From Candidatus Bathyarchaeia archaeon (GTDB taxonomy: Archaea; Thermoproteota; Bathyarchaeia; Bathyarchaeales; Bathycorpusculaceae), in the NCBI GenBank assembly GCA_049512075.1, contig JBEKXL010000010.1, positions 10,775 through 74,774 on the forward strand: 64,000 nt of DNA, in the 5' to 3' direction. The translations under genes and the position numbers were made by a program. Shown piece after piece: positions 2,424 to 55,871 of this stretch. Every line of letters begins with the position of its first letter. The stretch's first letter is position 1. Under the pieces are notes generated by a model, which was not told the origin of the DNA, did no database searches, and saw only the letters and a program-made list of their open reading frames with translations.

Positions 2424-2830
2424 CGTGTCCCACTCGGTCACAACTTTCTGTTCGCAAATAGAACAATGAAATTTCGCTCTTAAACCTTCTTTCCTTAGAA
2501 TAAATAGTTTGATTCGACTCATTACATTCGTATGTTCAAACAAGAGCTACTTTTCTGTCTCAGAAAATTAACTAGAACTACCTATTTGCAAGTCTTGTTC
2601 TGAATCAGAACGTGTTGCTTAGGGTCGATATGAAATGTGTAGGAAGGTTTCTCAGTCCACGAATTGACCTGTCGTGAAATGAGGCAGAAGACCCTAAGAA
2701 ACGCTGGGCGCGCCACCTGAATTCGTGAGGCAGCCGTGAAATCCTCCTTGTTTGCTGAGAAGACCCTAACCGTGTTGATGGCAAGATCAAACGTTGCCTA
2801 GGAGCCTGAAAAACGCAATATCTGCCTTAG

Positions 2831-4024
2831 TCATTCGCTTGTGTGAGGCATGAACTGCCATTTTTCTTGCTCAGCGTACATTTTCCTGAGTATTTCTGTT
2901 GCTTTTTCTCTGTCCAACGAAAGAAGAAGCTTCGCGATGTGTTTGCACAGTTTCTTGGTTGCCAGAACTCTCTCCCAATCAGCGCAATCGTGTGAAATCG
3001 TTGCAGCTTCTACATTTATGACTATATGGTAGTCTCTAATTACAGCATTGATTCGACTCGCATTCTGCTCTCGGATGGTTAGTTCACCGTTGTCGATCTG
3101 TTCAGCCCTCCGCAATCTCTCCGATGGAACGAAATAGTGAATCAGACTCTCAAAACTCATATCTCTAGGTTCAACAAAGCTTTCCAGCGTAGAACTCTTC
3201 AGTTCGGCTGAACTCTGCAGATATTTTTCGATCTTGTTCTTAGCATCAGCCTGTTTCGCGTTTATGTTTCCAATAATTTCCATGACTTGGAGACAGTTTT
3301 CAACAGCGTAGCCGTGGTAATGGTTGTTGAAATAGCCAAATATCTTTCCGACTTTTCCGGCGACATCCTTTACTTTCGGTATCCATGGTTCGAGCTCCTG
3401 GACGGAATAGCGGTAGTCGTACCACGGTCTTTGGCCGCGTCCGTGCCATCTGAAATATGCGATGTCTGAAGTTAGATGGATATCTGAAGGGAGCAGAGGT
3501 TCGTCGACGATTGTGTAGGCAACGCGATATTTCTCGAGCAGACTCCAAGTCTCACTTCTCATCCAAGACTTTTCTCGAAACTCTACGGCGAACCTCACTT
3601 GGGTGGGGAGTATTTTGAAGAAGCTTTCCAGTTCTTGAGGTCGATAATCAAACTTTGGCGGAAGCTGAATGAGTATGCACCCGAGTTTTCCGCTGAGAAT
3701 AAGAGGCTCCATGAGCTGAATGAACCTCTCTAGATCATGTTCTGCCCCTTCGTTTAAACTCAGTTTCTTATCGTGCGTGATGAGCCCAGGCAGTTTCGCC
3801 GCGTAGATGAAGCCTTCAGGCGAGTATCTCGTCCATCCCATGACTGTGCCTTTTGATGGGTATCTGTAGAAGGTAGAGTCGATTTCAACCGTTTTGAAGA
3901 TCTTAGAGTACGCGCGAAGCTTACTCTTGTCCATCTTCGTGTAGAACGGGCCGACCCATTCGTTGTAGCTCCATCCTGAAGTGCCTAGAAGGACGTTATC
4001 GGGAATTGAGGCCAAACCGTTCAT
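2831..4024 (-). CDS. DUF72 family protein with C-terminal SWIM-type zinc finger
   Basis: GTSGWSY, VEIDSTFY, LIQLPP, YFRWHGR, YFNNH; C-terminal HDCADW...LCKHIAK. Confidence 0.85.
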   Translation of the reverse strand: MNGLASIPDNVLLGTSGWSYNEWVGPFYTKMDKSKLRAYSKIFKTVEIDSTFYRYPSKGTVMGWTRYSPEGFIYAAKLPGLITHDKKLSLNEGAEHDLERFIQLMEPLILSGKLGCILIQLPPKFDYRPQELESFFKILPTQVRFAVEFREKSWMRSETWSLLEKYRVAYTIVDEPLLPSDIHLTSDIAYFRWHGRGQRPWYDYRYSVQELEPWIPKVKDVAGKVGKIFGYFNNHYHGYAVENCLQVMEIIGNINAKQADAKNKIEKYLQSSAELKSSTLESFVEPRDMSFESLIHYFVPSERLRRAEQIDNGELTIREQNASRINAVIRDYHIVINVEAATISHDCADWERVLATKKLCKHIAKLLLSLDREKATEILRKMYAEQEKWQFMPHTSE

Positions 4025-4941
4025 CTCATCACACGTTCTAACCTATCGGCGACTTCGTCTAAATCGTTGTAGGTCGCCTCTGGCAGCTTCTCCAGCAGGT
4101 TTTCTACGCGGATTCTTTTGGTTTCGGTTAGATCAAAGATTTTCCATCCTTGGCTGCGTATCAACTCTTGCTTTGTTGATGGAAATCTTGCATCTTCGCT
4201 CAGAACCTCTTCGAGCGAATCTAAGCCCGTCGACCTTGTAACCATCGGAAACTGCCCCGTTTGCTTGTAGGTTTTGAGCCTCGCTGCGTCCTTGTACATT
4301 CTAACAAAGTGGAAGCTCATAACTATCTTTTCGGACTTTCCACTTGAGGCTTTTTTGTCTATTTCTACAAGTTCCTCATCAGTAGGCTGGTACACATTGT
4401 GTTTCCCCTTTCCGAAAAGTCTGGTGTAGAGCATGTCAGATTCATACGCCGGCATCTCGGCCCTTGAAAGGTCCGTGCAGTGGACAATGTTGTATTCTTG
4501 CATGGTCTTGAGCAATTCAGGAGGAAGCTGTGAGGATCTTACCCCTCTGATTTCGAGAGCTAGCCGAAGCTTTCGGAGACTCACTGAGGAAAGTAGACTG
4601 TGAAAATTCGTGATTGACGTCTCAGTTAGTTCAAAAGAGGGCGGCACTTGGAGATGCATGACCTCGGCGTCCAGCGTGCTGCATATCTGGTTCATGCGTT
4701 CAAATGCTTCAAACGTCTCCTCCACGGGCTGAAGCTTGTACAGGTGCGTTATTGATTGATGTGCTCTGACTGAAAACTTGAAATCCGGGGGAACATGTCT
4801 TCTCCATTTCTCAACCTCTTTCAGTAGGGGTATTTGATAAAAAGTAGAGTTGACTTCCACAAAATTAAAGATTCTTGAGTAAGCCGTCAGCGATCCGAGC
4901 CCCGGAACTCGAAAGTATGCCCACCCACCCGTTCCGATCAA
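4021..4941 (-). CDS. Divergent DUF72 family protein with C-terminal DUF2795-like domain
   Basis: GTGGWAY, VEVNSTFY, YTRLFGKG; C-terminal ARFPSTKQELI...LPEATY. Confidence 0.8.
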   Translation of the reverse strand: MIGTGGWAYFRVPGLGSLTAYSRIFNFVEVNSTFYQIPLLKEVEKWRRHVPPDFKFSVRAHQSITHLYKLQPVEETFEAFERMNQICSTLDAEVMHLQVPPSFELTETSITNFHSLLSSVSLRKLRLALEIRGVRSSQLPPELLKTMQEYNIVHCTDLSRAEMPAYESDMLYTRLFGKGKHNVYQPTDEELVEIDKKASSGKSEKIVMSFHFVRMYKDAARLKTYKQTGQFPMVTRSTGLDSLEEVLSEDARFPSTKQELIRSQGWKIFDLTETKRIRVENLLEKLPEATYNDLDEVADRLERVMR

Positions 4942-17768: not shown

Positions 17769-20700
17769 TCAATGTTTTCGTCTTCGCACAGCAACAACCG
17801 CAAGGCACACGACCCCAACCAACACGGCAACGGATATGAGGACCAGTTCAAGGTGAGCCGTTATCCATCCTTGCACATCGAAACCCCCTAGACCCGATGT
17901 CGCGCCCACTTGAATGTTCACGTGACTAACAACAGTTTGGATACCGCTCTGAAAAGTGAATTGACTGGAAACCTGAACAGAATAGTTTCCGTCCGCAACG
18001 CTGGAAGGCACAGTCACCCCGACCTGTATCGTGTTGCCAGATCCCAATGTCAACGGCAAAACAGGCCCTGTCAGCCAGTCAGCACCTGCCCCCTGAAAAG
18101 TAATCTGGGTCAAAAAGACGTTGGTCGGGGAAGCCCATGAAACAGGAATCAACGCTGTCGCTGAACCGCCTGGGGCCACGCTCACGGAACAGTCACTAAC
18201 TTGGATATTCAAGCCTCCAGAACTAGGACCGCTTGGTCCTGAAGGACCAGAGGGCGCAGAAATCGAGACAGAAAACATCACAGTCGCTTGCCCAACGGTT
18301 CCAACCGTGTTATTGGCAAAATCGTAGAAAGTGTAGGAACTGCCATCTACAAAACCAGCCAAATACATGATGCCAGCAGTGTAAGACTCGTTCGAAGCAT
18401 ATATCCAAGCGGTTCCGTTTTTGCAGTTAAACCATTCCTGATCAATCGTTCCGCCCGAAGCTGAAAACTGGACTGGAATAGTGTCTGAAGTGTACGTGGT
18501 GTTCGTTGGGTTCGTTATGGTAACGGTAACGCTTGTTAGGGAAAACACTGGCTGCGCTGTGGTGTTTCCCGTTATCGTGAACGTGAGAGGATTGCTAGAG
18601 CCTCCCGAAGAACCGTTCACCAGCCAATTACTCCAATCATATCCGCTACTATTAGTCTCATAGATGGCTACGGTTGCCCCAGACGTGTAGTTTGTGTACG
18701 TTCCAGCAACAGGATTAGTTGCTCCACCTGTGCCACTGCTGATGGTGAGGGTAGGGTCTAGTGTCAACGTGTAATTTGCGGAGGCGAACACTCCTGCTGT
18801 CGTGTTATAGACTTTGACGTTCCAGACATACATACCATAAGCCGGGAAGGTATATGAAAAACTGTTCGCCGTATTGTTAGCTACGGCGGTCTGGTTGTTC
18901 TGCACGTTCTGCCAAGTTCCTGAGGCGTTTACCCATAGACTCGCGTTCTGAATAGTGTCTCCAACACAGATGGGAGTATAGGTTAACGTGGCAGACAGCG
19001 ACGTTTGCGACGTGCTGTTTGATGGGCTGTTCAGAGTGACAATCAGCGAAGCATACAGCAGGGTAAGCGTGTAGTTCGAAGAGGCAAACGTGGACATGGA
19101 AGAATTGTAAACCTGAACGTTCCAAAGGTATGTGCCGTTAGAATTGAACGTATAGCCTATTGTATTTTGGGTGTTATTCGCTACTGCCGTAGTGTTGCCT
19201 TGAGTGGCAGCCCATGATCCAGTAACATTCGTCCAGAGAGTAGTGTTTTGGATAGTGTCCCCAACGCAGACTGGAGTATACACAAAACTTATTGCCCGGG
19301 AATATTGGGAGTAGCCGTTTGAAGGAGAGTTTAAGGTAACTGTGACATATTCGGCTGTAGTCGTCAGCGTTTTGATACCGGTGTTGTTAAGGTTGTTGCT
19401 GGAATCAGCAAACCAGTATTCCCACTGAACAACAACCCCGACTGTAGAGTTCAACGTTTTCGTGGTGTTTGCAAGGTAAGAGGATCCGCTGATATTCACA
19501 GCAGAATCGTTCACCCATGGGCCTGTGCTGTTTGTTCCAAACGTGTAATTTGTCAGGGCCACATTGTCTGCAAGCGTCACGCTAAAGTTGCAGGGATACC
19601 CAGCCACAGTCGAGTTAGTGTTCGGGTTGCTGTAGGTTGGGGCAGTAGTGTCTCCAGCGACCGCTGCCGCTTTGAAAGTTGCGATGCAACCAGAATAATA
19701 TGCGCTAGAAAGCGGTGTAGTTCCAGAGTTTGCCGTTCCAGTCGAATTTACAATTTTTTCCAGATAAGCAGAACCAACATTAGTGTAGTCGCTTCCGTCA
19801 AACTGACCGAAAGCGTTTGTCGGAGCAGTTTGGTCTTTTCCGTTTGTCGTAATAACTCCAATCCACAGTTCGCTCGCTTGTGTTGTGGTTGCCGTTGTAC
19901 CTGTGTCAGTGGTAGTGCTACTTCCCCCGTTTGTCGCTGTCTTGTCAAGAAAGGTAGTTGTGTTCAGTCCAGAATATTCGCAAACGTCTGCAATAGCTCC
20001 ATAGTTAGGTGCTGCACTCATCGTAACGTTAAGGGAACTACTGGCTCCTGCACCTACTACGCCATACCAAATTTCAGCGTCCCATTCGCTGTTGTAGGCG
20101 TTGTTTGCCTGTTTCGTCCATGTTACTCCAGTTTCGCTTATGCTACTCACTGTGGAAGGGCCACTAGGAAACATTGAAGAAGAAATGGTCGCTATAAGCA
20201 CGTTTCCCGATGTTGGAGCCGCCCCCATAGTGACGGTGACGTTGATTGTGATTGAAGTGCCTCTTGCTGGACCTTGAACCCTAACTATTCCCGTAGGAGC
20301 CCCATCAAGTTTGAACGTGGCTATGCAACCCAGCAAACCCGAAGCAGAATCCCCTGTAATTCCAGAGTTCGCCGCACCAGTGGAAGTCACAAATTTCTCC
20401 AAGTACGCCACGTTGACCTGTTGGTATCCAGCTCCATCAAACATTATGAAACCGTTGGTAGGATTCCAAGCATGGTAAGGAGGCGAAACTCCACCCTCAT
20501 CGAATGTTGCTCCTATCCATAGCTCGTTTGCTTGTGTCGTTGTGGCTGTCGTGCCAGTGTCTATGAATGGCCCTGCAGAACTGTTCGTAGCGGTTTTATC
20601 TACTGGGCTGCTGCTGATTCCTGAATATTCACAAACGTCAGCTACGCCACCGTTTGCAGCGTTTCCGCTTAGGGTAACGTTTAGGGAAGCTGACGCTCCA

Positions 20701-21047
20701 GCACTTACCGCTCCTAACCATATTGCCAGGTCTTGCCATCCGCTAGTGGTGTCAACAGCTTGACTCCATGTTACACCCGTTTGAGATATGCTACTTATTG
20801 AAACAGCACCACCGTTACCGCGTGTTCCTATCGCGGCTATAAGCGAGTTACCTGAAGTTGGCGCTGCAACCATCGTTACAGTAATGTTAATGCCAGTGGT
20901 TGTTCCTCTTGCATTGCCCTGAACCCTCAGTATTGAACCAGTAGCATAAACAGGCTTGATTTGTCCAGCCAAAAACCCGAACATTCCAACCAAAAGCATA
21001 ACGCAAACAGCGAGACCGACAAGTTTTCTACGGTTCATAATCTTCAC
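17769..21047 (-). CDS. Large membrane-anchored surface glycoprotein/adhesin with repeated beta-rich domains
   Basis: Signal peptide; two ~210-aa repeats (RVQG.ARGT...CIATFK); two ~100-aa Ig-like repeats (VTLNSPSN...NYTLTL); many NxS/T sites; C-terminal TM followed by RRRKH. Confidence 0.85.
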   Translation of the reverse strand: MKIMNRRKLVGLAVCVMLLVGMFGFLAGQIKPVYATGSILRVQGNARGTTTGINITVTMVAAPTSGNSLIAAIGTRGNGGAVSISSISQTGVTWSQAVDTTSGWQDLAIWLGAVSAGASASLNVTLSGNAANGGVADVCEYSGISSSPVDKTATNSSAGPFIDTGTTATTTQANELWIGATFDEGGVSPPYHAWNPTNGFIMFDGAGYQQVNVAYLEKFVTSTGAANSGITGDSASGLLGCIATFKLDGAPTGIVRVQGPARGTSITINVTVTMGAAPTSGNVLIATISSSMFPSGPSTVSSISETGVTWTKQANNAYNSEWDAEIWYGVVGAGASSSLNVTMSAAPNYGAIADVCEYSGLNTTTFLDKTATNGGSSTTTDTGTTATTTQASELWIGVITTNGKDQTAPTNAFGQFDGSDYTNVGSAYLEKIVNSTGTANSGTTPLSSAYYSGCIATFKAAAVAGDTTAPTYSNPNTNSTVAGYPCNFSVTLADNVALTNYTFGTNSTGPWVNDSAVNISGSSYLANTTKTLNSTVGVVVQWEYWFADSSNNLNNTGIKTLTTTAEYVTVTLNSPSNGYSQYSRAISFVYTPVCVGDTIQNTTLWTNVTGSWAATQGNTTAVANNTQNTIGYTFNSNGTYLWNVQVYNSSMSTFASSNYTLTLLYASLIVTLNSPSNSTSQTSLSATLTYTPICVGDTIQNASLWVNASGTWQNVQNNQTAVANNTANSFSYTFPAYGMYVWNVKVYNTTAGVFASANYTLTLDPTLTISSGTGGATNPVAGTYTNYTSGATVAIYETNSSGYDWSNWLVNGSSGGSSNPLTFTITGNTTAQPVFSLTSVTVTITNPTNTTYTSDTIPVQFSASGGTIDQEWFNCKNGTAWIYASNESYTAGIMYLAGFVDGSSYTFYDFANNTVGTVGQATVMFSVSISAPSGPSGPSGPSSGGLNIQVSDCSVSVAPGGSATALIPVSWASPTNVFLTQITFQGAGADWLTGPVLPLTLGSGNTIQVGVTVPSSVADGNYSVQVSSQFTFQSGIQTVVSHVNIQVGATSGLGGFDVQGWITAHLELVLISVAVLVGVVCLAVVAVRRRKH

Positions 21048-25272: not shown

Positions 25273-26604
25273 CTACTGTTTGTGTAGTTTCTGTGCCGCT
25301 ATGAAAGTTAGCCCGTGTCGGGTCAGAGCTTCGGCTGTGACGTTGAGCGCGTCGTGTTTGTCGAGATAGTTGGTCACGAGTTTAGGCATCAATCCCTTCT
25401 CCGTGATGTCTTTTTCGGGCATGAAATAGTCCAAGATGTCTGACGGGTGTTCCCTTTTTTCCTCAGTTTCGGGTTTTCCGCCTTCGTGTTTTGCACTGAT
25501 GTTTCTTACGTGGTTTGCGAGTTGCATAAGCTCATCTGTGCGGTCGTAGGGTTGTCTCACGATGTTCTTGTAGGCTTCAGTGATGTGATGCTCAATGCGG
25601 ACGATGTCTTCAAAGCCAAACGCTTTTCTAACGTAAGCAGAGAGCTCAATCGTCTCGTTATTAACGGAGTTTGAAAGGTTGAACCCGATGAGCGGAGTGG
25701 AACCGTCATCCCGGCTGAAAAGTTTTGCAGTCATCAACGTCCACAGGATTGAGTAGGGATTGTCGTTTCCCAGAAACACTGAAATCTTGAATTCAATGTC
25801 AATTCCCAGTTTTCGGAGCCAATATCCCAGCAAAACCGTGCCCGAATTCGTGTTCAAGACCTGGGGAAGGCCATATTCCGTGTAATATTTGAGAAACTCG
25901 TCTACCCACTTCAACGTGTAATCATTCGGAACTCCGACTCCTCCAAAATACCCTGTGATAGTGTCCGCGCCGCCGAGATGAATGTTAACGGGTTTGCCGT
26001 CTGGCCCCTGCATTGTGCCTTTAGTGTCTAACGTTTGAACGTAAGAGGCTCCTACAACCTGCATCGCAGCTGCAAAGGCTACGACGTCGTCGTCTTCAAC
26101 CTGCTCTTTTATCGAACGCACCCGTATGTAACGGGCGGGCATCAAGTTTTTCTGTGCAATAGCTCTCTTTGCCTCTTCAATAATCCATGGGAAGAAGTTG
26201 AACGCGCTGATTTCCAGTGTGACAGCGAAAGACTCGTCGAACTTTGTCGACTCCATCTTTTTTCCCAGAATTTTCTTCCGGTATTCAGGGATGCTGGTAA
26301 AGGCCTCTTCATCCCGCCTTTTCATCAGCCATTGGAGGTCCTTGACGAAGGATGATTTCTTCCTCTCAAGCCTGCCCATGAGGTTTTCAATCCTGTGAGC
26401 CTCCTTGGCTCTGCGGTTAATCTCATCCACGCCACCGTACTTCTCAACAACTTGCAGAACACCGTCGATGAGGGGATTATCCTTCTGTAACAAGAAACTG
26501 TTTATCTCCCTCAAGTTCTCTTCGTCAATCCTCAGTCTCTCCCTAAGATCGGCCAAAATAGTCACTTCCGCCTCTAACTTTTGGATCTCAAACGATTTAA
26601 ACAT
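25273..26604 (-). CDS. Uncharacterised soluble protein, enzyme-like
   Basis: 443-aa ORF with motif-like segments PARYIRVR, TLDTKGT, HLGGADTITGYFGG, RIEHHITE, SAKHEG. Confidence 0.8.
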   Translation of the reverse strand: MFKSFEIQKLEAEVTILADLRERLRIDEENLREINSFLLQKDNPLIDGVLQVVEKYGGVDEINRRAKEAHRIENLMGRLERKKSSFVKDLQWLMKRRDEEAFTSIPEYRKKILGKKMESTKFDESFAVTLEISAFNFFPWIIEEAKRAIAQKNLMPARYIRVRSIKEQVEDDDVVAFAAAMQVVGASYVQTLDTKGTMQGPDGKPVNIHLGGADTITGYFGGVGVPNDYTLKWVDEFLKYYTEYGLPQVLNTNSGTVLLGYWLRKLGIDIEFKISVFLGNDNPYSILWTLMTAKLFSRDDGSTPLIGFNLSNSVNNETIELSAYVRKAFGFEDIVRIEHHITEAYKNIVRQPYDRTDELMQLANHVRNISAKHEGGKPETEEKREHPSDILDYFMPEKDITEKGLMPKLVTNYLDKHDALNVTAEALTRHGLTFIAAQKLHKQ

Positions 26605-26783
26605 TTCAGACCATTTGCGTACAAACCTAAATTCCGCTTTGCTTAAGCAGAAGGAAGAACTACTTCGCCGGCTAAAGAGCTGATGGTCGTCAGCTGGAAA
26701 ACATGCACAAACGTTGTGGTTTTGCCATCATAAGACTCAAATGATATAAGAAGCCTTGTTCGAATAAGGCGTGGAGACTAACC

Positions 26784-28262
26784 ATGTACAAGCCAGAGGG
26801 CATTCTCCCCGCGTTGGTGACTCCGTTCACGGACGATGGGAAAGCTGTTGACGAACAGCGGCTGCGCACTTTGGTTAACCACTGCATCGAGTTAGGGGTT
26901 CACGGGGTTGTTCCGTGTGGGACGACCGGCGAGTTTGTGAACCTCACGGACGAGGAGAAGAAGCGTGTAATCAAAATCGTGGTTGACGAAGTGAACGGTC
27001 GAGTTCCAGTGATTGCTGGAACAGGAGCAAGCGGCACAGACGAAGCTGTGGAATTGACGAAATACGCAAAGGACATCGGTGCCACCGCCGCGCTCGTAGT
27101 CACACCGTTCTACCTGAAACCAGCAGACCGCGGAATATACGAGCACTACTACACGATAGCAAACAAGGTAGACTTGCCGATAATTCTTTACAACATTCCG
27201 CAGTGCACAGGTTTATCCCTTCCCTGGCAGATGGTTGAGGATTTAGCACAGATACCAAACATCGTGGGCGTGAAAGACAGCAGCGGACAGTTGAGCTTCA
27301 TCTTGGCTGTCCTCGAAAAAGTCAGGGACAAAATAAACGTCCTGTGCGGACACGACGAAGTCGTCGTGGCGGCACTCGCAGCCGGATGCTCGGGGGCAAT
27401 CCTTGCAAGTGCCAACATCATGCCCGACATCTGGATTCAGATTTATGACCATGTGAAAAAGGGCGAATTACAACAGGCCCGCGAACTTCAATACAAAGTG
27501 CAGAAAATAGCGAGGATAATAGCGGGAAGCGGCGCAGTAGGGACAAAAGAAGCACTGAAGATGATGAAAATCAAGGTCGGCCCGGTGAGAATGCCGTTGA
27601 GCGTTGGGGGAGAATTGACCTACGAATCAAAAGAGGAGCTGCGGCTTGACCTGGAAAAAATAGGGAAAGTGCAGCCGAAACAGGTAACCTTTGAACTGGC
27701 CGAGAAACCGTTGGAAGATCGTTTTGCGACCGTGGACATCACCGCCGAAGAGATTAAGAGCTTCAAACTGCGCGTCGGCGAAGCACTAGCTGGGCAGGGG
27801 GCAGAGGTGGCCCACATTGACATCCTTGTCGGAACGAAAACTGGTCCAGTGGCAGAAGCTTTCACAAAAGCTAAGGCAACACCAACGCGGGGACATGAAC
27901 CGCTTCTAGCAATCCTAGAGCCAAACCTGTCAGTCAAACCAATCACCCTAATCGTTCCAACAGTCACAATCACAGGCATGCGGCAAGCAAGCATGGTCTA
28001 TGGTCCAGCCCAAACAGCCGTGGCCAAAGCAGTCATCGACAGCGTCGCAGACGGCACGATTCCGAAAGAAGCCGTTGAAGAATTAATTATCATCGCAAAC
28101 GTTTTCGTTCATCCCTCAGCCGTTGACCGGCAGCGTGTTTACATAAACAACTACAAGGCGATGCGACATGCCGTGCGCAAGGCCTTGGAGAACCGGCCCA
28201 GCATGGACGAGCTAATGGAGAACAAGGACCGGTCAAAACATCCTTTCAAGTACACACCATAG
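26784..28262 (+). CDS. DapA/NanA-family aldolase fused to formaldehyde-activating enzyme (Fae)
   Basis: N-terminal ALVTPF, CGTTGEF, LYNIP, GVKDSSG; C-terminal VGEALAG.GAEVAHID, GHEPLLA, YGPAQTAVAKAV, VFVHP, NYKA, KHPF. Confidence 0.9.
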   Translation: MYKPEGILPALVTPFTDDGKAVDEQRLRTLVNHCIELGVHGVVPCGTTGEFVNLTDEEKKRVIKIVVDEVNGRVPVIAGTGASGTDEAVELTKYAKDIGATAALVVTPFYLKPADRGIYEHYYTIANKVDLPIILYNIPQCTGLSLPWQMVEDLAQIPNIVGVKDSSGQLSFILAVLEKVRDKINVLCGHDEVVVAALAAGCSGAILASANIMPDIWIQIYDHVKKGELQQARELQYKVQKIARIIAGSGAVGTKEALKMMKIKVGPVRMPLSVGGELTYESKEELRLDLEKIGKVQPKQVTFELAEKPLEDRFATVDITAEEIKSFKLRVGEALAGQGAEVAHIDILVGTKTGPVAEAFTKAKATPTRGHEPLLAILEPNLSVKPITLIVPTVTITGMRQASMVYGPAQTAVAKAVIDSVADGTIPKEAVEELIIIANVFVHPSAVDRQRVYINNYKAMRHAVRKALENRPSMDELMENKDRSKHPFKYTP

Positions 28263-28271
28263 TGAACTCAG

Positions 28272-29072
28272 TTGGCAGAACGGAGAATACTTAATGGCGA
28301 CTACGCGCTTCTTAGCTTGGGCCCGCGAAAGACTTACATGATTAGAGTCGAAAATGGAAAGAGCTTCCACACCCACAAAGGCTTCATAAAGTTTGACGAC
28401 CTAATCGGGAGAGAATACGGCTCCACGGTTGAGAGTAGCCTAGGTTTCGAATTCACGGCTCTGAAACCGTTGCTCCATGACTATATCATGAAGTCCGCCC
28501 GGCAAACTCAGATAACTTATCCGAAGGACATAGCCCTCATCGTAATGTTCAGCGGGATAGGTCCGGGAAGCAGCGTTGTTGAGTCTGGGACAGGAACAGG
28601 CGCCCTGACCACGGCGCTAGCCCACTACGTCCAGCCAAACGGCAGAATCTACAGTTACGAAATCAGAGGAGAATTTCAAAAAACGGCTGAGAAAAACTTG
28701 ACCCGCGCAGGCTTGATCGACTACGTCGAGCTGAAGAACAAGGATGTCACGACTGGGATGGATGAGAGAGACGTCGATTCCGTAATACTCGATTTGGCAG
28801 TTCCATGGATGGTCGTTCCGCACGCTCAAACCGCCTTGAAGCCATGTGGAACGATAGTTTCCTTCAGCCCAACAATAGACCAAGTCGTCAAGACGGCTGA
28901 AGCCTTGAAAGAAAACGGTTTCGTGAGCATGGAGACAATCGAATGCCTCATGCGCGGAATGCAGGTCGAAAGGGGAAAAACGCGACCCCACACCTTAATG
29001 ACTGGGCACACCGGCTACATCACCTTCGCCCGCAAAGCGATAAAGACTCAACCCGCCAACTCCAAACCATGA
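28272..29072 (+). CDS. trmI: tRNA (adenine-N1)-methyltransferase TrmI/GCD14
   Basis: FHTHKG, QITYPKD, ESGTGTGALT, LDLAVPW, GHTGYI. Confidence 0.92.
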   Translation: MAERRILNGDYALLSLGPRKTYMIRVENGKSFHTHKGFIKFDDLIGREYGSTVESSLGFEFTALKPLLHDYIMKSARQTQITYPKDIALIVMFSGIGPGSSVVESGTGTGALTTALAHYVQPNGRIYSYEIRGEFQKTAEKNLTRAGLIDYVELKNKDVTTGMDERDVDSVILDLAVPWMVVPHAQTALKPCGTIVSFSPTIDQVVKTAEALKENGFVSMETIECLMRGMQVERGKTRPHTLMTGHTGYITFARKAIKTQPANSKP

Positions 29073-32803: not shown

Positions 32804-34102
32804 CTAATGTCCGCCAGTGCGGGCTTGTTTAGCGTATTTTTCCGTTTCTGCGAAGAGTTTTCCTATGTCACTTTCGGAATGTTCAGTGCTTAGGACGCCG
32901 TTGTGCGTCGGCAATAAGAAGAGCCCGTTCGTTATCAAGGCCAAAGCATAGCTGATGAGCTTCTTCCTATCCGCAGCAAAGGCGGCAATTGCATCATTGA
33001 CTCTTTCCTTCGTGAAATGCGTGTTAAAAATGGAGCCTGCTCCCGTGAGTTGCACATCAAGCCCATGTGTTTCGAAAATGTCCAACAGCTCTTGTCTAAC
33101 TCGGGTTCCAGCTCTGTTCAAACTCTCTATCAATTTGCCATCCTCCAGCAGTTTCAATGTTGCCAAGCCAGCCGTCATCGTTACCGGGTTAGCGGCAAAA
33201 GTTCCACCATGGAAGGAGTAATCTGGACGTTGATGAGCGACGCTGTCCAGGTGCTCCATGATTTCGCTGGGTCCACAAAATGCGCCTATGGGAAAGCCTC
33301 CACCCAGAATCTTTCCTAGCACAGCTATGTCCGCTTTCACGCCGTAGTACTGCTGAGCCCCTCCGGGCGCCAGCCTAAAACCTGTAATCACCTCATCAAA
33401 AATCAGCAGTGTGTTTCTCTCATCACAGTATTCTCGAAGCCCTTGCAAGAACTCTTTTTCCGCGGGAACGCCTCCACCCGCTCCCAGAACGGGCTCGATT
33501 ATTATGCACGCGACCTCTTCGCTTCTCAGTCTTTCCCTTACCCCTTCCAAATTGTTGTAGGGCAGAATGATCGTGTCTTGAGTTGCTCCGGCTGTTAATC
33601 CAGCCGATTCTGGAAGGTCAAAGGGGTACTTTACGCTCACCTGGAGTGCGTCGTAGCCTCCATGCCATCCGCCTTCAAACTTCGCAATCTTGTCCTTTCC
33701 AGCATACGCCCTTGCCAATCGTGTAGCATACATATTCGCCTCCGTCCCAGAGTTCGTGAACCGAATCATTTTTGCGTTCGGAACCATCTTCGCAACCTGC
33801 TCGGCCAGTTTGATCTCTAACTCATGGCAAGTTCCATAGTGCGTACCTTTTTGAAGCTGCTCTCTTACGGCATTCGTTACGGCCGGGTATCCATGGCCCA
33901 GGATGAGAGCGGTGTGTCCTAGCCAGAAGTCCACGTACTCGTTGCCGTCGACATCGTACAGTCTACTTCCTTTTGCTCTGGCAGTGTAGAAGGGGTACGG
34001 CTCAAAGTAGTGTACGCCGTAGGAAACTCCTGCCGGAAGAACCTTTTTCGCCCTCTCATACAAGATTCTGGAATTGGGCGTTTTTGAAACATAGCCTGAC
34101 AT
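32804..34102 (-). CDS. hemL: Glutamate-1-semialdehyde 2,1-aminomutase-like class III aminotransferase
   Basis: NSGTEA, FEGGWHG, FDEVITGFR, LGKILGGGFP, GGTFAANP. Confidence 0.8.
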   Translation of the reverse strand: MSGYVSKTPNSRILYERAKKVLPAGVSYGVHYFEPYPFYTARAKGSRLYDVDGNEYVDFWLGHTALILGHGYPAVTNAVREQLQKGTHYGTCHELEIKLAEQVAKMVPNAKMIRFTNSGTEANMYATRLARAYAGKDKIAKFEGGWHGGYDALQVSVKYPFDLPESAGLTAGATQDTIILPYNNLEGVRERLRSEEVACIIIEPVLGAGGGVPAEKEFLQGLREYCDERNTLLIFDEVITGFRLAPGGAQQYYGVKADIAVLGKILGGGFPIGAFCGPSEIMEHLDSVAHQRPDYSFHGGTFAANPVTMTAGLATLKLLEDGKLIESLNRAGTRVRQELLDIFETHGLDVQLTGAGSIFNTHFTKERVNDAIAAFAADRKKLISYALALITNGLFLLPTHNGVLSTEHSESDIGKLFAETEKYAKQARTGGH

Positions 34103-55720: not shown

Positions 55721-55794
55721 GGCCGGGGTGAGGTAGCTTGGTAGCCCATAGGCCTGTGGAGCCTAGCGCCCGGGTTCAAATCCCGGCCCCGGCC
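55721..55794 (+). tRNA. tRNA-His (GUG) with encoded G-1
   Basis: Acceptor GCCGGGG/CCCCGGC; anticodon arm TAGGC-CTGTGGA-GCCTA; T arm CCGGG-TTCAAAT-CCCGG; discriminator C. Confidence 0.93.
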
Positions 55795-55871
55795 CTAACC
55801 ATTTCTTGAAAGAACATAGAACTTTGGAGCGCACGAGGCCCATCCGACTCTGACGATTGAGCGAGAAATTG

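Follow-up and report, generated by a model that had tools for sequence, protein, structure and literature searches.

The described fusion partner of formaldehyde-activating enzyme (Fae) is hexulose-6-phosphate synthase (Hps), and in the Fae-Hps protein (NF009833) an N-terminal Fae domain is joined to this sugar phosphate enzyme, which makes or uses free formaldehyde. PanB is the one well-studied enzyme known to hydroxymethylate a 2-oxoacid at C3 with a methylene-pterin as donor; it has a single domain and uses the methylene-pterin directly. A synthetic "homoserine cycle" in Escherichia coli is reportedly due to He et al. in 2020; RhmA, the promiscuous aldolase on which the engineered cycle draws, is a class II, metal-dependent enzyme. 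As set out in the available part of PMC8879981, promiscuous enzymes in engineered E. coli carry pyruvate and formaldehyde to 4-hydroxy-2-oxobutanoate (HOB), then to homoserine and, by way of homoserine kinase and threonine synthase, to threonine, and HOB is there called a "non-native" metabolite. Here we describe a fused gene in a 64,000-nucleotide stretch of the genome of a Candidatus Bathyarchaeia archaeon (contig JBEKXL010000010.1; the whole stretch is called the window). A single open reading frame (ORF) of 492 amino acids joins a Schiff-base aldolase domain of the dihydrodipicolinate synthase (DHDPS, or DapA; EC 4.3.3.7) family to a C-terminal Fae domain (Table 1). We consider its most likely function to be that of a natural pyruvate-formaldehyde aldolase linked to a one-carbon (C1) carrier, which may feed homoserine and which has not previously been described.

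Table 1. Features of the fusion gene, its surroundings, and related loci. Positions without a genome label are those of the window; for the others, the locus, genome, and contig labels of this study are given.
Feature	Position	Strand	Basis or remark
Whole fusion ORF, 492 aa	26784..28262 (stop codon included)	+	ORF list, ATG start, two Pfam domains
DHDPS-family class I (Schiff-base) aldolase domain, residues 4-290	26793..27653	+	PF00701
Inter-domain segment, residues 291-330	27654..27773	+	conserved helix first, then low-confidence linker 304-326
Formaldehyde-activating enzyme (Fae) domain, residues 331-488	27774..28247	+	PF08714, TIGR03126
Cys141 codon, position of E. coli DHDPS Arg138	27204..27206	+	HMMER alignments to solved DHDPS
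Lys164 codon, predicted Schiff-base lysine, KDSSG motif	27273..27275	+	alignment
Divergent 443-aa conserved gene, neighbor only	25273..26604	-	ORF list
TrmI/GCD14-type tRNA methyltransferase	28272-29072	+	PF08704, 145.8 bits
Second DHDPS paralog L002, 298 aa	G000:C5 1483-2379	-	Phe at Arg138 position (YNVPKFTG)
Fae-Hps ORF, L003	G000:C1 973-2682	+	NF009833
PanB	G000:C4:120669-121400		PF02548, 316 bits
Tandem fusion genes, L041	G015:C13 5998-7494 and 7497-8936	-	type 1 + type 2
Fusion copy with frameshift, L066	G135:C8 about 2700-4190		single frameshift near residue 180

Both domains of the fusion are full length, because the Pfam profiles are covered almost end to end: positions 2-286 of 289 for PF00701 (275.4 bits) and 1-158 of 159 for PF08714 (205.6 bits, cut-off 27). 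In NCBIfam, the protein scores 257.8 bits on TIGR00674 (dapA; cut-off 206.15) and 214.3 bits on TIGR03126 (one_C_fae; equivalog-domain cut-off 118.05). These searches, together with the ORF list, bear out the original prediction that a complete aldolase domain and a complete Fae domain are encoded by one 492-aa ORF divergent from a 443-aa gene; the two start codons lie 179 bases apart. An AlphaFold2 model built from 30 fusion sequences is of high confidence (mean pLDDT 86.6, pTM 0.82) and has two folded domains and a linker, with pLDDT below 50 at residues 304-326. In and just before the inter-domain segment, L290 is invariant among the 30 aligned fusions and E285, R287, E291, and G294 are nearly so. 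Fae is a homopentamer and DHDPS a dimer of dimers, occurring as dimers or tetramers. A fusion of a pentameric Fae with a dimeric or tetrameric DHDPS brings a symmetry mismatch, and the resulting protein might form a large closed assembly that confines formaldehyde.

The aldolase domain shares its fold and family (PF00701) with DapA. It is 38-39% identical to the DapA of M. jannaschii (2yxg), which is also the top Foldseek match to the aldolase part of the model (target-normalized TM 0.95; rmsd 1.6 Å). The Schiff-base lysine, the catalytic tyrosine, and the pyruvate-binding motif GTTGE are retained: T47 and T48 of this motif, Y110, Y136, and K164 all align with residues of solved DHDPS, K164 with the lysine of their VKE/IKD motif. 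K164, Y136, and T48 are invariant in 30/30 aligned fusions, and T47 and Y110 nearly so. The difference lies in one arginine. Where the solved enzymes 2yxg, 3pud, and 3a5f read YNVP(S/G)RT, the fusion reads YNIPQCTG. We take the arginine of this motif to be Arg138 of E. coli DHDPS, which presumably binds the substrate aspartate semialdehyde (ASA). Its place is held by Cys141 in the window's protein and by C, A, V, L, or T, never by Arg, in 22 fused sequences from 21 genomes. It is also non-Arg in 12 distant fused representatives, so that none of the 34 fused sequences carries it. Because the ASA-binding arginine is lost, we take the fusion not to be a dihydrodipicolinate synthase. Its sequence places it among the class I Schiff-base pyruvate aldolases of the DHDPS/NAL family, with a true DHDPS function unlikely.

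Comparison with relatives within the class also sets the domain apart. A tree of aldolase domains, 22 of them fused and 21 standalone, unites the fused domains in one clade (support 100/100, stem 0.64), which is consistent with one old origin of the fusion. Among the 21 standalone DHDPS paralogs sampled, only two have the arginine (YNNPGRTG), both from DapB-positive genomes, and the other 19 lack it. A separate dapA-like gene does exist in the window's genome (L002); it belongs to a clade of nine similar paralogs across the class and has Phe in place of Arg. It nevertheless scores 218.5 bits on TIGR00674, above the dapA equivalog cut-off. Since this paralog passes as well, TIGR00674 cannot separate true DapA from other aldolases in this class.

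The Fae domain aligns with Methylobacterium Fae (1y5y) at an E value of 2.8e-35 and retains the EVAHID, GPAQ, and HPF motifs, of which the EVAHID histidine is, we assume, the catalytic residue. A343 and H344 are invariant in 30 fusions of the window's kind (type 1). With its motifs conserved and the equivalog-domain cut-off passed, the domain is intact, and it has every feature by which Fae is recognized in sequence; it is predicted to interconvert free formaldehyde and methylene-tetrahydromethanopterin (methylene-H4MPT). One stretch of PDB entry 8ub7 ("Avd," 290 aa) aligns almost as Methylobacterium Fae does; by appearance, this entry is a fusion construct. The original prediction had named Hps as the described partner of Fae, which fits the window's genome, where a separate Fae-Hps gene is present (NF009833, 581 bits). 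The window's fusion matches NF009833 in its Fae part only (profile positions 2-161 of 392), and at 180.8 bits it stays below the cut-off of 274; the Fae domains of the two are about 50% identical in class-wide matches. Unlike Fae-Hps, the fusion has its Fae domain at the C terminus and a DHDPS-family pyruvate aldolase as the partner. Read from its first start codon, the Fae-Hps ORF has about 170 extra N-terminal residues (the match begins at residue 175 of 569), and its true start is probably internal.

That the fusion might be unique to one assembly is contradicted by its distribution. In a search of 5.8 billion proteins, all 120 of the best matches listed had both Pfam domains and were 85-100% identical. 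By their NCBI names they belong to Bathyarchaeia, and where a source gives a protein name it is 4-hydroxy-tetrahydrodipicolinate synthase, with one "hypothetical protein." Our class sample comprised 201 Bathyarchaeia genomes, of which 51 from many families encode an uninterrupted full-length fusion (47-100% identity), 6 a partial or interrupted one, and 144 none. An exhaustive search of 1.84 billion cluster representatives added about a dozen full-length fused representatives at 36-55% identity, and both domains were found in 8/8 of the distant representatives that were scanned. By source name, the cluster members are metagenome-assembled genomes (MAGs) of Lokiarchaeota/Promethearchaeota, Thorarchaeota, and Korarchaeota/Thermoproteota, with one "Anaerolineae bacterium" MAG. 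The single reading frame is supported because both domains are joined in the 120/120 listed matches and an uninterrupted full-length match is present in 51/201 genomes. Over all searches, the source names given to the protein were 4-hydroxy-tetrahydrodipicolinate synthase, formaldehyde-activating enzyme, and hypothetical protein. To judge from these sequences, it is no assembly artifact but a real, ancient, widespread, and misannotated bifunctional gene.

The pathways around the gene can be judged from the window's genome (G000), which is 2.73 Mb in length and 99.76% complete. No dapB was matched there. Asd was matched neither by the archaeal model nor by the general Semialdhyde_dh model, both of which matched 14/14 control genomes, and no aspartate kinase (AK) scored above the cut-off (best 37 bits against 208.7). 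The N-terminal domain of the fusion is thus without two things that define DapA, namely, the arginine and the pathway context (DapB and a source of ASA). Homoserine dehydrogenase (Hom) is present (PF00742, 159.6 bits; NF004976, 208.5 bits against a cut-off of 205), as are two threonine synthases (ThrC) above their equivalog cut-offs (350.8 versus 303 and 440.8 versus 301 bits). HcyBio was not found. Three full-length copies and a fragment of Mch (methenyl-H4MPT cyclohydrolase, PF02289) were found, so H4MPT C1 metabolism is present. The genome therefore encodes enzymes acting on homoserine or on homoserine phosphate, as well as an H4MPT C1 pathway, whereas the canonical route to homoserine is missing.

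Seven class-wide searches were cross-tabulated over the same 201 genomes, in tables compiled by hand in which single slips are possible. The window's order contributes 51 genomes, each at least 90% complete, 12 with the fusion and 39 without it. Within it, the canonical route and the fusion show an almost complementary distribution. AK is found in 1/12 genomes with the fusion versus 39/39 without, Asd in 2/12 versus 39/39, Hom in 2/12 versus 36/39, DapB in 1/12 versus 33/39, and HcyBio in 0/12 versus 38/39; for PanB, the counts are 8/12 versus 1/39. Every genome of the order has Asd or the fusion, and two have them together; counted by genus, Asd occurs in 2/11 fusion genera versus 14/14 others. 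ThrC is kept in the window's genome and in seven other fusion genomes of the order. Over the whole class, the figures for genomes with and without the fusion are 17/51 versus 109/144 for AK, 16/51 versus 107/144 for Asd, 15/51 versus 109/144 for Hom, 1/51 versus 53/144 for DapB, 13/51 versus 85/144 for HcyBio, and 27/51 versus 41/144 for PanB. Fifty-one class genomes are without AK, Asd, and Hom together, and among these the fusion is full in 28, partial in 4, and absent from 19; the fusion occurs in 8 of the 97 genomes that have all three enzymes.

Neighboring ORFs were clustered over 21 fusion loci (the window and 20 others), and in three lineages thrB-thrC, hom, or HcyBio lies beside the fusion. 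The order in G031 is fusion, thrB (201.7 bits), thrC (376.9 bits), all co-oriented and with a 4-nt overlap of thrB and thrC, and no match to Asd or Hom was obtained in this genome. In G163 and G135, hom directly adjoins the fusion. At four loci of family f20, a 499-aa gene with HcyBio and CBS domains (PF01837, 480 bits) is divergent from the fusion and 1.3-1.9 kb upstream of it, and by its coordinates HcyBio is within about 1.2-3.3 kb of the fusion in a further four genomes of this family. These neighbors all act on homoserine, its phosphate, or ASA. The G135 copy, immediately downstream of hom, carries a frameshift (Table 1), and AK, Asd, Hom, ThrB, and ThrC are all encoded in the same genome. 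The frameshift may reflect the decay of a redundant gene or a mistake in the assembly, and because of the second possibility we do not take it as evidence.

We propose that the bifunctional protein would catalyze the reaction methylene-H4MPT + pyruvate + H2O <-> H4MPT + HOB. The simplest chemistry that would use both domains is a reversible aldol reaction in which a pyruvate enamine adds to formaldehyde to give HOB, while the Fae domain would exchange formaldehyde with methylene-H4MPT. Formaldehyde may in this way move from one active site to the other without accumulating in the cell. Synthesis would be the likely direction, with HOB transaminated to L-homoserine, and homoserine would then lead to threonine and, in some lineages, possibly to methionine. 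The C4 skeleton would be built from pyruvate and a C1 unit supplied by the methyl branch of the Wood-Ljungdahl pathway, a route that would take the place of AK, Asd, and Hom. The HOB aldolase and aminotransferase steps of the engineered E. coli cycle, as the available part of PMC8879981 gives them, are chemically identical to those proposed here. They depend, however, on RhmA and free formaldehyde, whereas the fusion would be a natural, dedicated, H4MPT-linked class I enzyme. Despite a similar proposed net reaction, the fusion belongs neither to the PanB family nor to that of the engineered HOB aldolase.

A homoserine-supplying role fits because the arginine is missing, DapB, Asd, and AK are absent, ThrC and Hom are retained, the distribution is nearly complementary to that of the canonical route, and thrB-thrC, hom, and HcyBio occur as neighbors. 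We think it probable that the fusion couples a pyruvate-formaldehyde aldol reaction to H4MPT, whichever way the reaction runs. The narrower proposal, that it is a Fae-coupled aldolase interconverting pyruvate plus formaldehyde and HOB and feeding homoserine, is put forward tentatively, as we rate it slightly below an even chance. More doubtful is the broad form of the proposal, in which homoserine, and from it threonine and perhaps methionine, is made from pyruvate and methylene-H4MPT carbon through the fusion in many uncultured archaea that use H4MPT (Bathyarchaeia and, to go by source names, Loki-, Thor-, and Korarchaeota), and in which the fusion has replaced AK, Asd, and Hom in many lineages. 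The original prediction had suggested that formaldehyde may be passed between a pyruvate aldol reaction and methylene-H4MPT. This suggestion has gained from the absence of the arginine, DapB, and Asd, from the intact Fae motifs, and from the phyletic pattern and the gene neighborhoods, and it has lost ground in several genomes that do not fit it. The support added here makes homoserine the likely destination of the product.

A number of observations weigh against a homoserine-supplying role. The aldolase domain still scores above the dapA equivalog cut-off, and a single residue is not enough to read substrate specificity in the DHDPS family. The phyletic counts are descriptive and carry no statistical test, since related genomes do not count as independent samples and the majority are MAGs. 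In family f20, 9/9 genomes combine AK and Asd with the fusion (one with a fusion fragment at a contig end). Because these genomes carry it, as do the eight that have AK, Asd, and Hom together, the fusion is no strict replacement of the canonical route. All four genomes of family f4 (94-97% complete) have the fusion, yet AK, Asd, Hom, DapB, HcyBio, GHMP-type homoserine kinase (ThrB), and either type of ThrC were not found in them, so that they show no known homoserine user. The GHMP-type ThrB was not found in the window's genome either. However, it is also missing from many genomes that have AK, Asd, and Hom (it was found in 0/14 of family f11, for example), and for that reason it is uninformative as a marker of homoserine use. 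Nor is the retention of ThrC specific to the fusion, because a ThrC match was obtained in 15/19 of the fusion-less genomes without AK, Asd, and Hom, in a class-wide tally (E <= 1e-45) that misses ThrC of the NF005035 type, was corrected in ten genomes, and gives lower bounds. As the fusion genomes of the window's order are also without HcyBio, the complementarity might mark an auxotrophic lifestyle rather than a bypass. The co-occurrence of PanB with the fusion does not fit the proposal. We note separately that PanB was not matched in most AK- and Asd-positive genomes of this order.

The remaining points against homoserine supply concern the fusion genes and their neighbors. No aminotransferase is conserved beside the fusion at the 21 loci. 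The class-III aminotransferase at 32804..34102 of the window was considered as an HOB aminotransferase and rejected; it is of the HemL type (NF000818, 403.5 bits against 398) and is not conserved near other fusions. In what we call type 2 fusions, the aldolase site is intact, whereas the Fae-like domain has lost the AHID histidine and is truncated at its C terminus. Tandem pairs of one full type 1 gene and a second, type 2 gene (about 465-480 aa) occur in G015, G057 (C7), and G051 (C4), and type 2 is the sole form seen in the cluster named Thorarchaeota (P0248). The type 2 copy may be a partner in a hetero-oligomer. Finally, the Fae-Hps of archaea is generally taken to work toward formaldehyde release, with Hps releasing formaldehyde and Fae capturing it.

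By analogy with Fae-Hps, which the window's genome also holds, the fusion may work in reverse. It would then cleave HOB, or another 4-hydroxy-2-oxoacid that releases formaldehyde, to pyruvate and formaldehyde, and Fae would trap the toxic aldehyde as methylene-H4MPT for oxidation or acetyl-CoA synthesis, a catabolic or C1-generating role. We consider this distinctly unlikely. A source of HOB is not evident, ThrC is retained in eight fusion genomes of the window's order, and the neighbors of the fusion are biosynthetic or housekeeping genes (thrB-thrC, hom, HcyBio, a his operon, a tRNA methyltransferase), not those of dehydratases, transporters, or sugar-acid metabolism. On its side are the f4 genomes, with the fusion and no known homoserine-using enzyme, and the fusion genomes of the window's order, which with one or two exceptions are without AK, Asd, DapB, and HcyBio, a set of losses that suggests amino acid scavengers. 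The available text of PMC10321748 likewise treats fae of Bathyarchaeia as a matter of formaldehyde detoxification or use. A somewhat less improbable alternative, although still an unlikely one, is that the aldolase takes a different substrate (glyoxylate, glycolaldehyde, a sugar-derived aldehyde, or a different 2-oxoacid) and that Fae serves an unrelated end, such as detoxification, pterin binding, or an oligomer scaffold, with the fusion providing co-regulation only. Bathyarchaeia have many divergent DHDPS-family paralogs, 19 of the 21 sampled being without the arginine. Because type 2 fusions keep only the aldolase site, the aldolase can apparently do without Fae catalysis, and the co-occurrence with PanB in the window's order hints at lineage-level gene sets. 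Yet the fusion persists over an identity range of 100% to about 36% and in different named phyla, and type 1 proteins conserve both active sites. Moreover, Fae-Hps, the sole other Fae fusion seen, pairs Fae with an enzyme that handles formaldehyde, and the neighbors of the fusion point to homoserine metabolism.

Two further readings take the protein for a known enzyme. The databases annotate it as DapA, in effect a genuine one with an extra Fae domain, and the TIGR00674 score, the nearest solved structures (all DHDPS), and the source name 4-hydroxy-tetrahydrodipicolinate synthase agree with this. We nevertheless regard it as very improbable, given that the Arg138 position is non-Arg in 34/34 fused sequences, that DapB, Asd, and AK are missing from the window's genome and DapB is found in only 1/51 fusion genomes, and that the fused clade, with its C-terminal Fae domain, stands apart from the Arg-bearing paralogs of DapB-positive genomes. 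The protein could also be an H4MPT-dependent substitute for PanB that hydroxymethylates 2-oxoisovalerate for coenzyme A synthesis, an essential role that would explain why the gene is retained in f4. The proposed net reaction of the fusion, hydroxymethyl transfer from methylene-pterin to a 2-oxoacid, is indeed analogous to that of PanB, but the folds are unrelated, and Pfam gave no PF02548 match in the fusion protein. The window's genome has a PanB of its own (Table 1), and PanB co-occurs with the fusion (27/51 versus 41/144 genomes in the class, 8/12 versus 1/39 in the order) where a substitute would call for exclusion. On these grounds we rejected this reading, which is the least credible of those considered.

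Several other genes of the window were noted. The divergent 443-aa gene is near the fusion at 7/21 loci, none of them outside the window's order, and five of the seven have it directly divergent. Its product, a member of a very large family, had no Pfam or NCBIfam match, and the best hit of a PDB profile search had an E value of 0.13. A protein search matched at least 8000 scored candidates, and the 120 listed were 78-95% identical and unannotated. An AlphaFold2 model from seven sequences was poor (pLDDT 40.5), and the integrase-like atlas matches, all below 0.9, were taken as noise. Because nothing in this protein is identifiable and its presence near the fusion is confined to the window's order, we did not use it as evidence. 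On the other side, a tRNA methyltransferase gene of the TrmI/GCD14 type, a family that we take to act in m1A methylation, starts 10 bases past the fusion stop on the same strand. It is common to 6/21 loci, again all in the window's order, and may be co-transcribed with the fusion; a functional link is not evident. Elsewhere in the window are a 1092-aa ORF without a Pfam match (17769-21047, minus strand) and the sole RNA gene found there, a tRNA-His (GTG) at 55722-55795 (plus strand).

Among the papers listed by full-text searches (supplementary files were outside the scope), we found no description of a DapA-Fae or DHDPS-Fae fusion or of homoserine synthesis by a natural, H4MPT-linked route. 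Hou et al. 2023 (PMC10321748), in the part of the text available, mention fae of Bathyarchaeia only in connection with the detoxification or use of formaldehyde, and neither of the words dapA and homoserine appears there. Reconstructions of Bathyarchaeia and Asgard metabolism that count the fusion as DapA would wrongly infer part of a lysine pathway and would miss the real role of the gene. If the proposed function is correct, the fusion would be the first known natural enzyme dedicated to a pyruvate-formaldehyde aldol reaction and linked to a C1 carrier, and an evolved enzyme with built-in formaldehyde handling would be useful for synthetic methylotrophy, where this step is engineered, as in the available part of PMC8879981. 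It would also offer an answer to how abundant sediment archaea that are without AK, Asd, and Hom can retain threonine synthase, and it would constitute a previously unrecognized link between the Wood-Ljungdahl methyl branch and amino acid biosynthesis. Amino acid synthesis in these archaea would then be tied to formaldehyde and methyl-group chemistry, which the available text of PMC10321748 connects with the growth of Bathyarchaeia on methoxylated lignin compounds.

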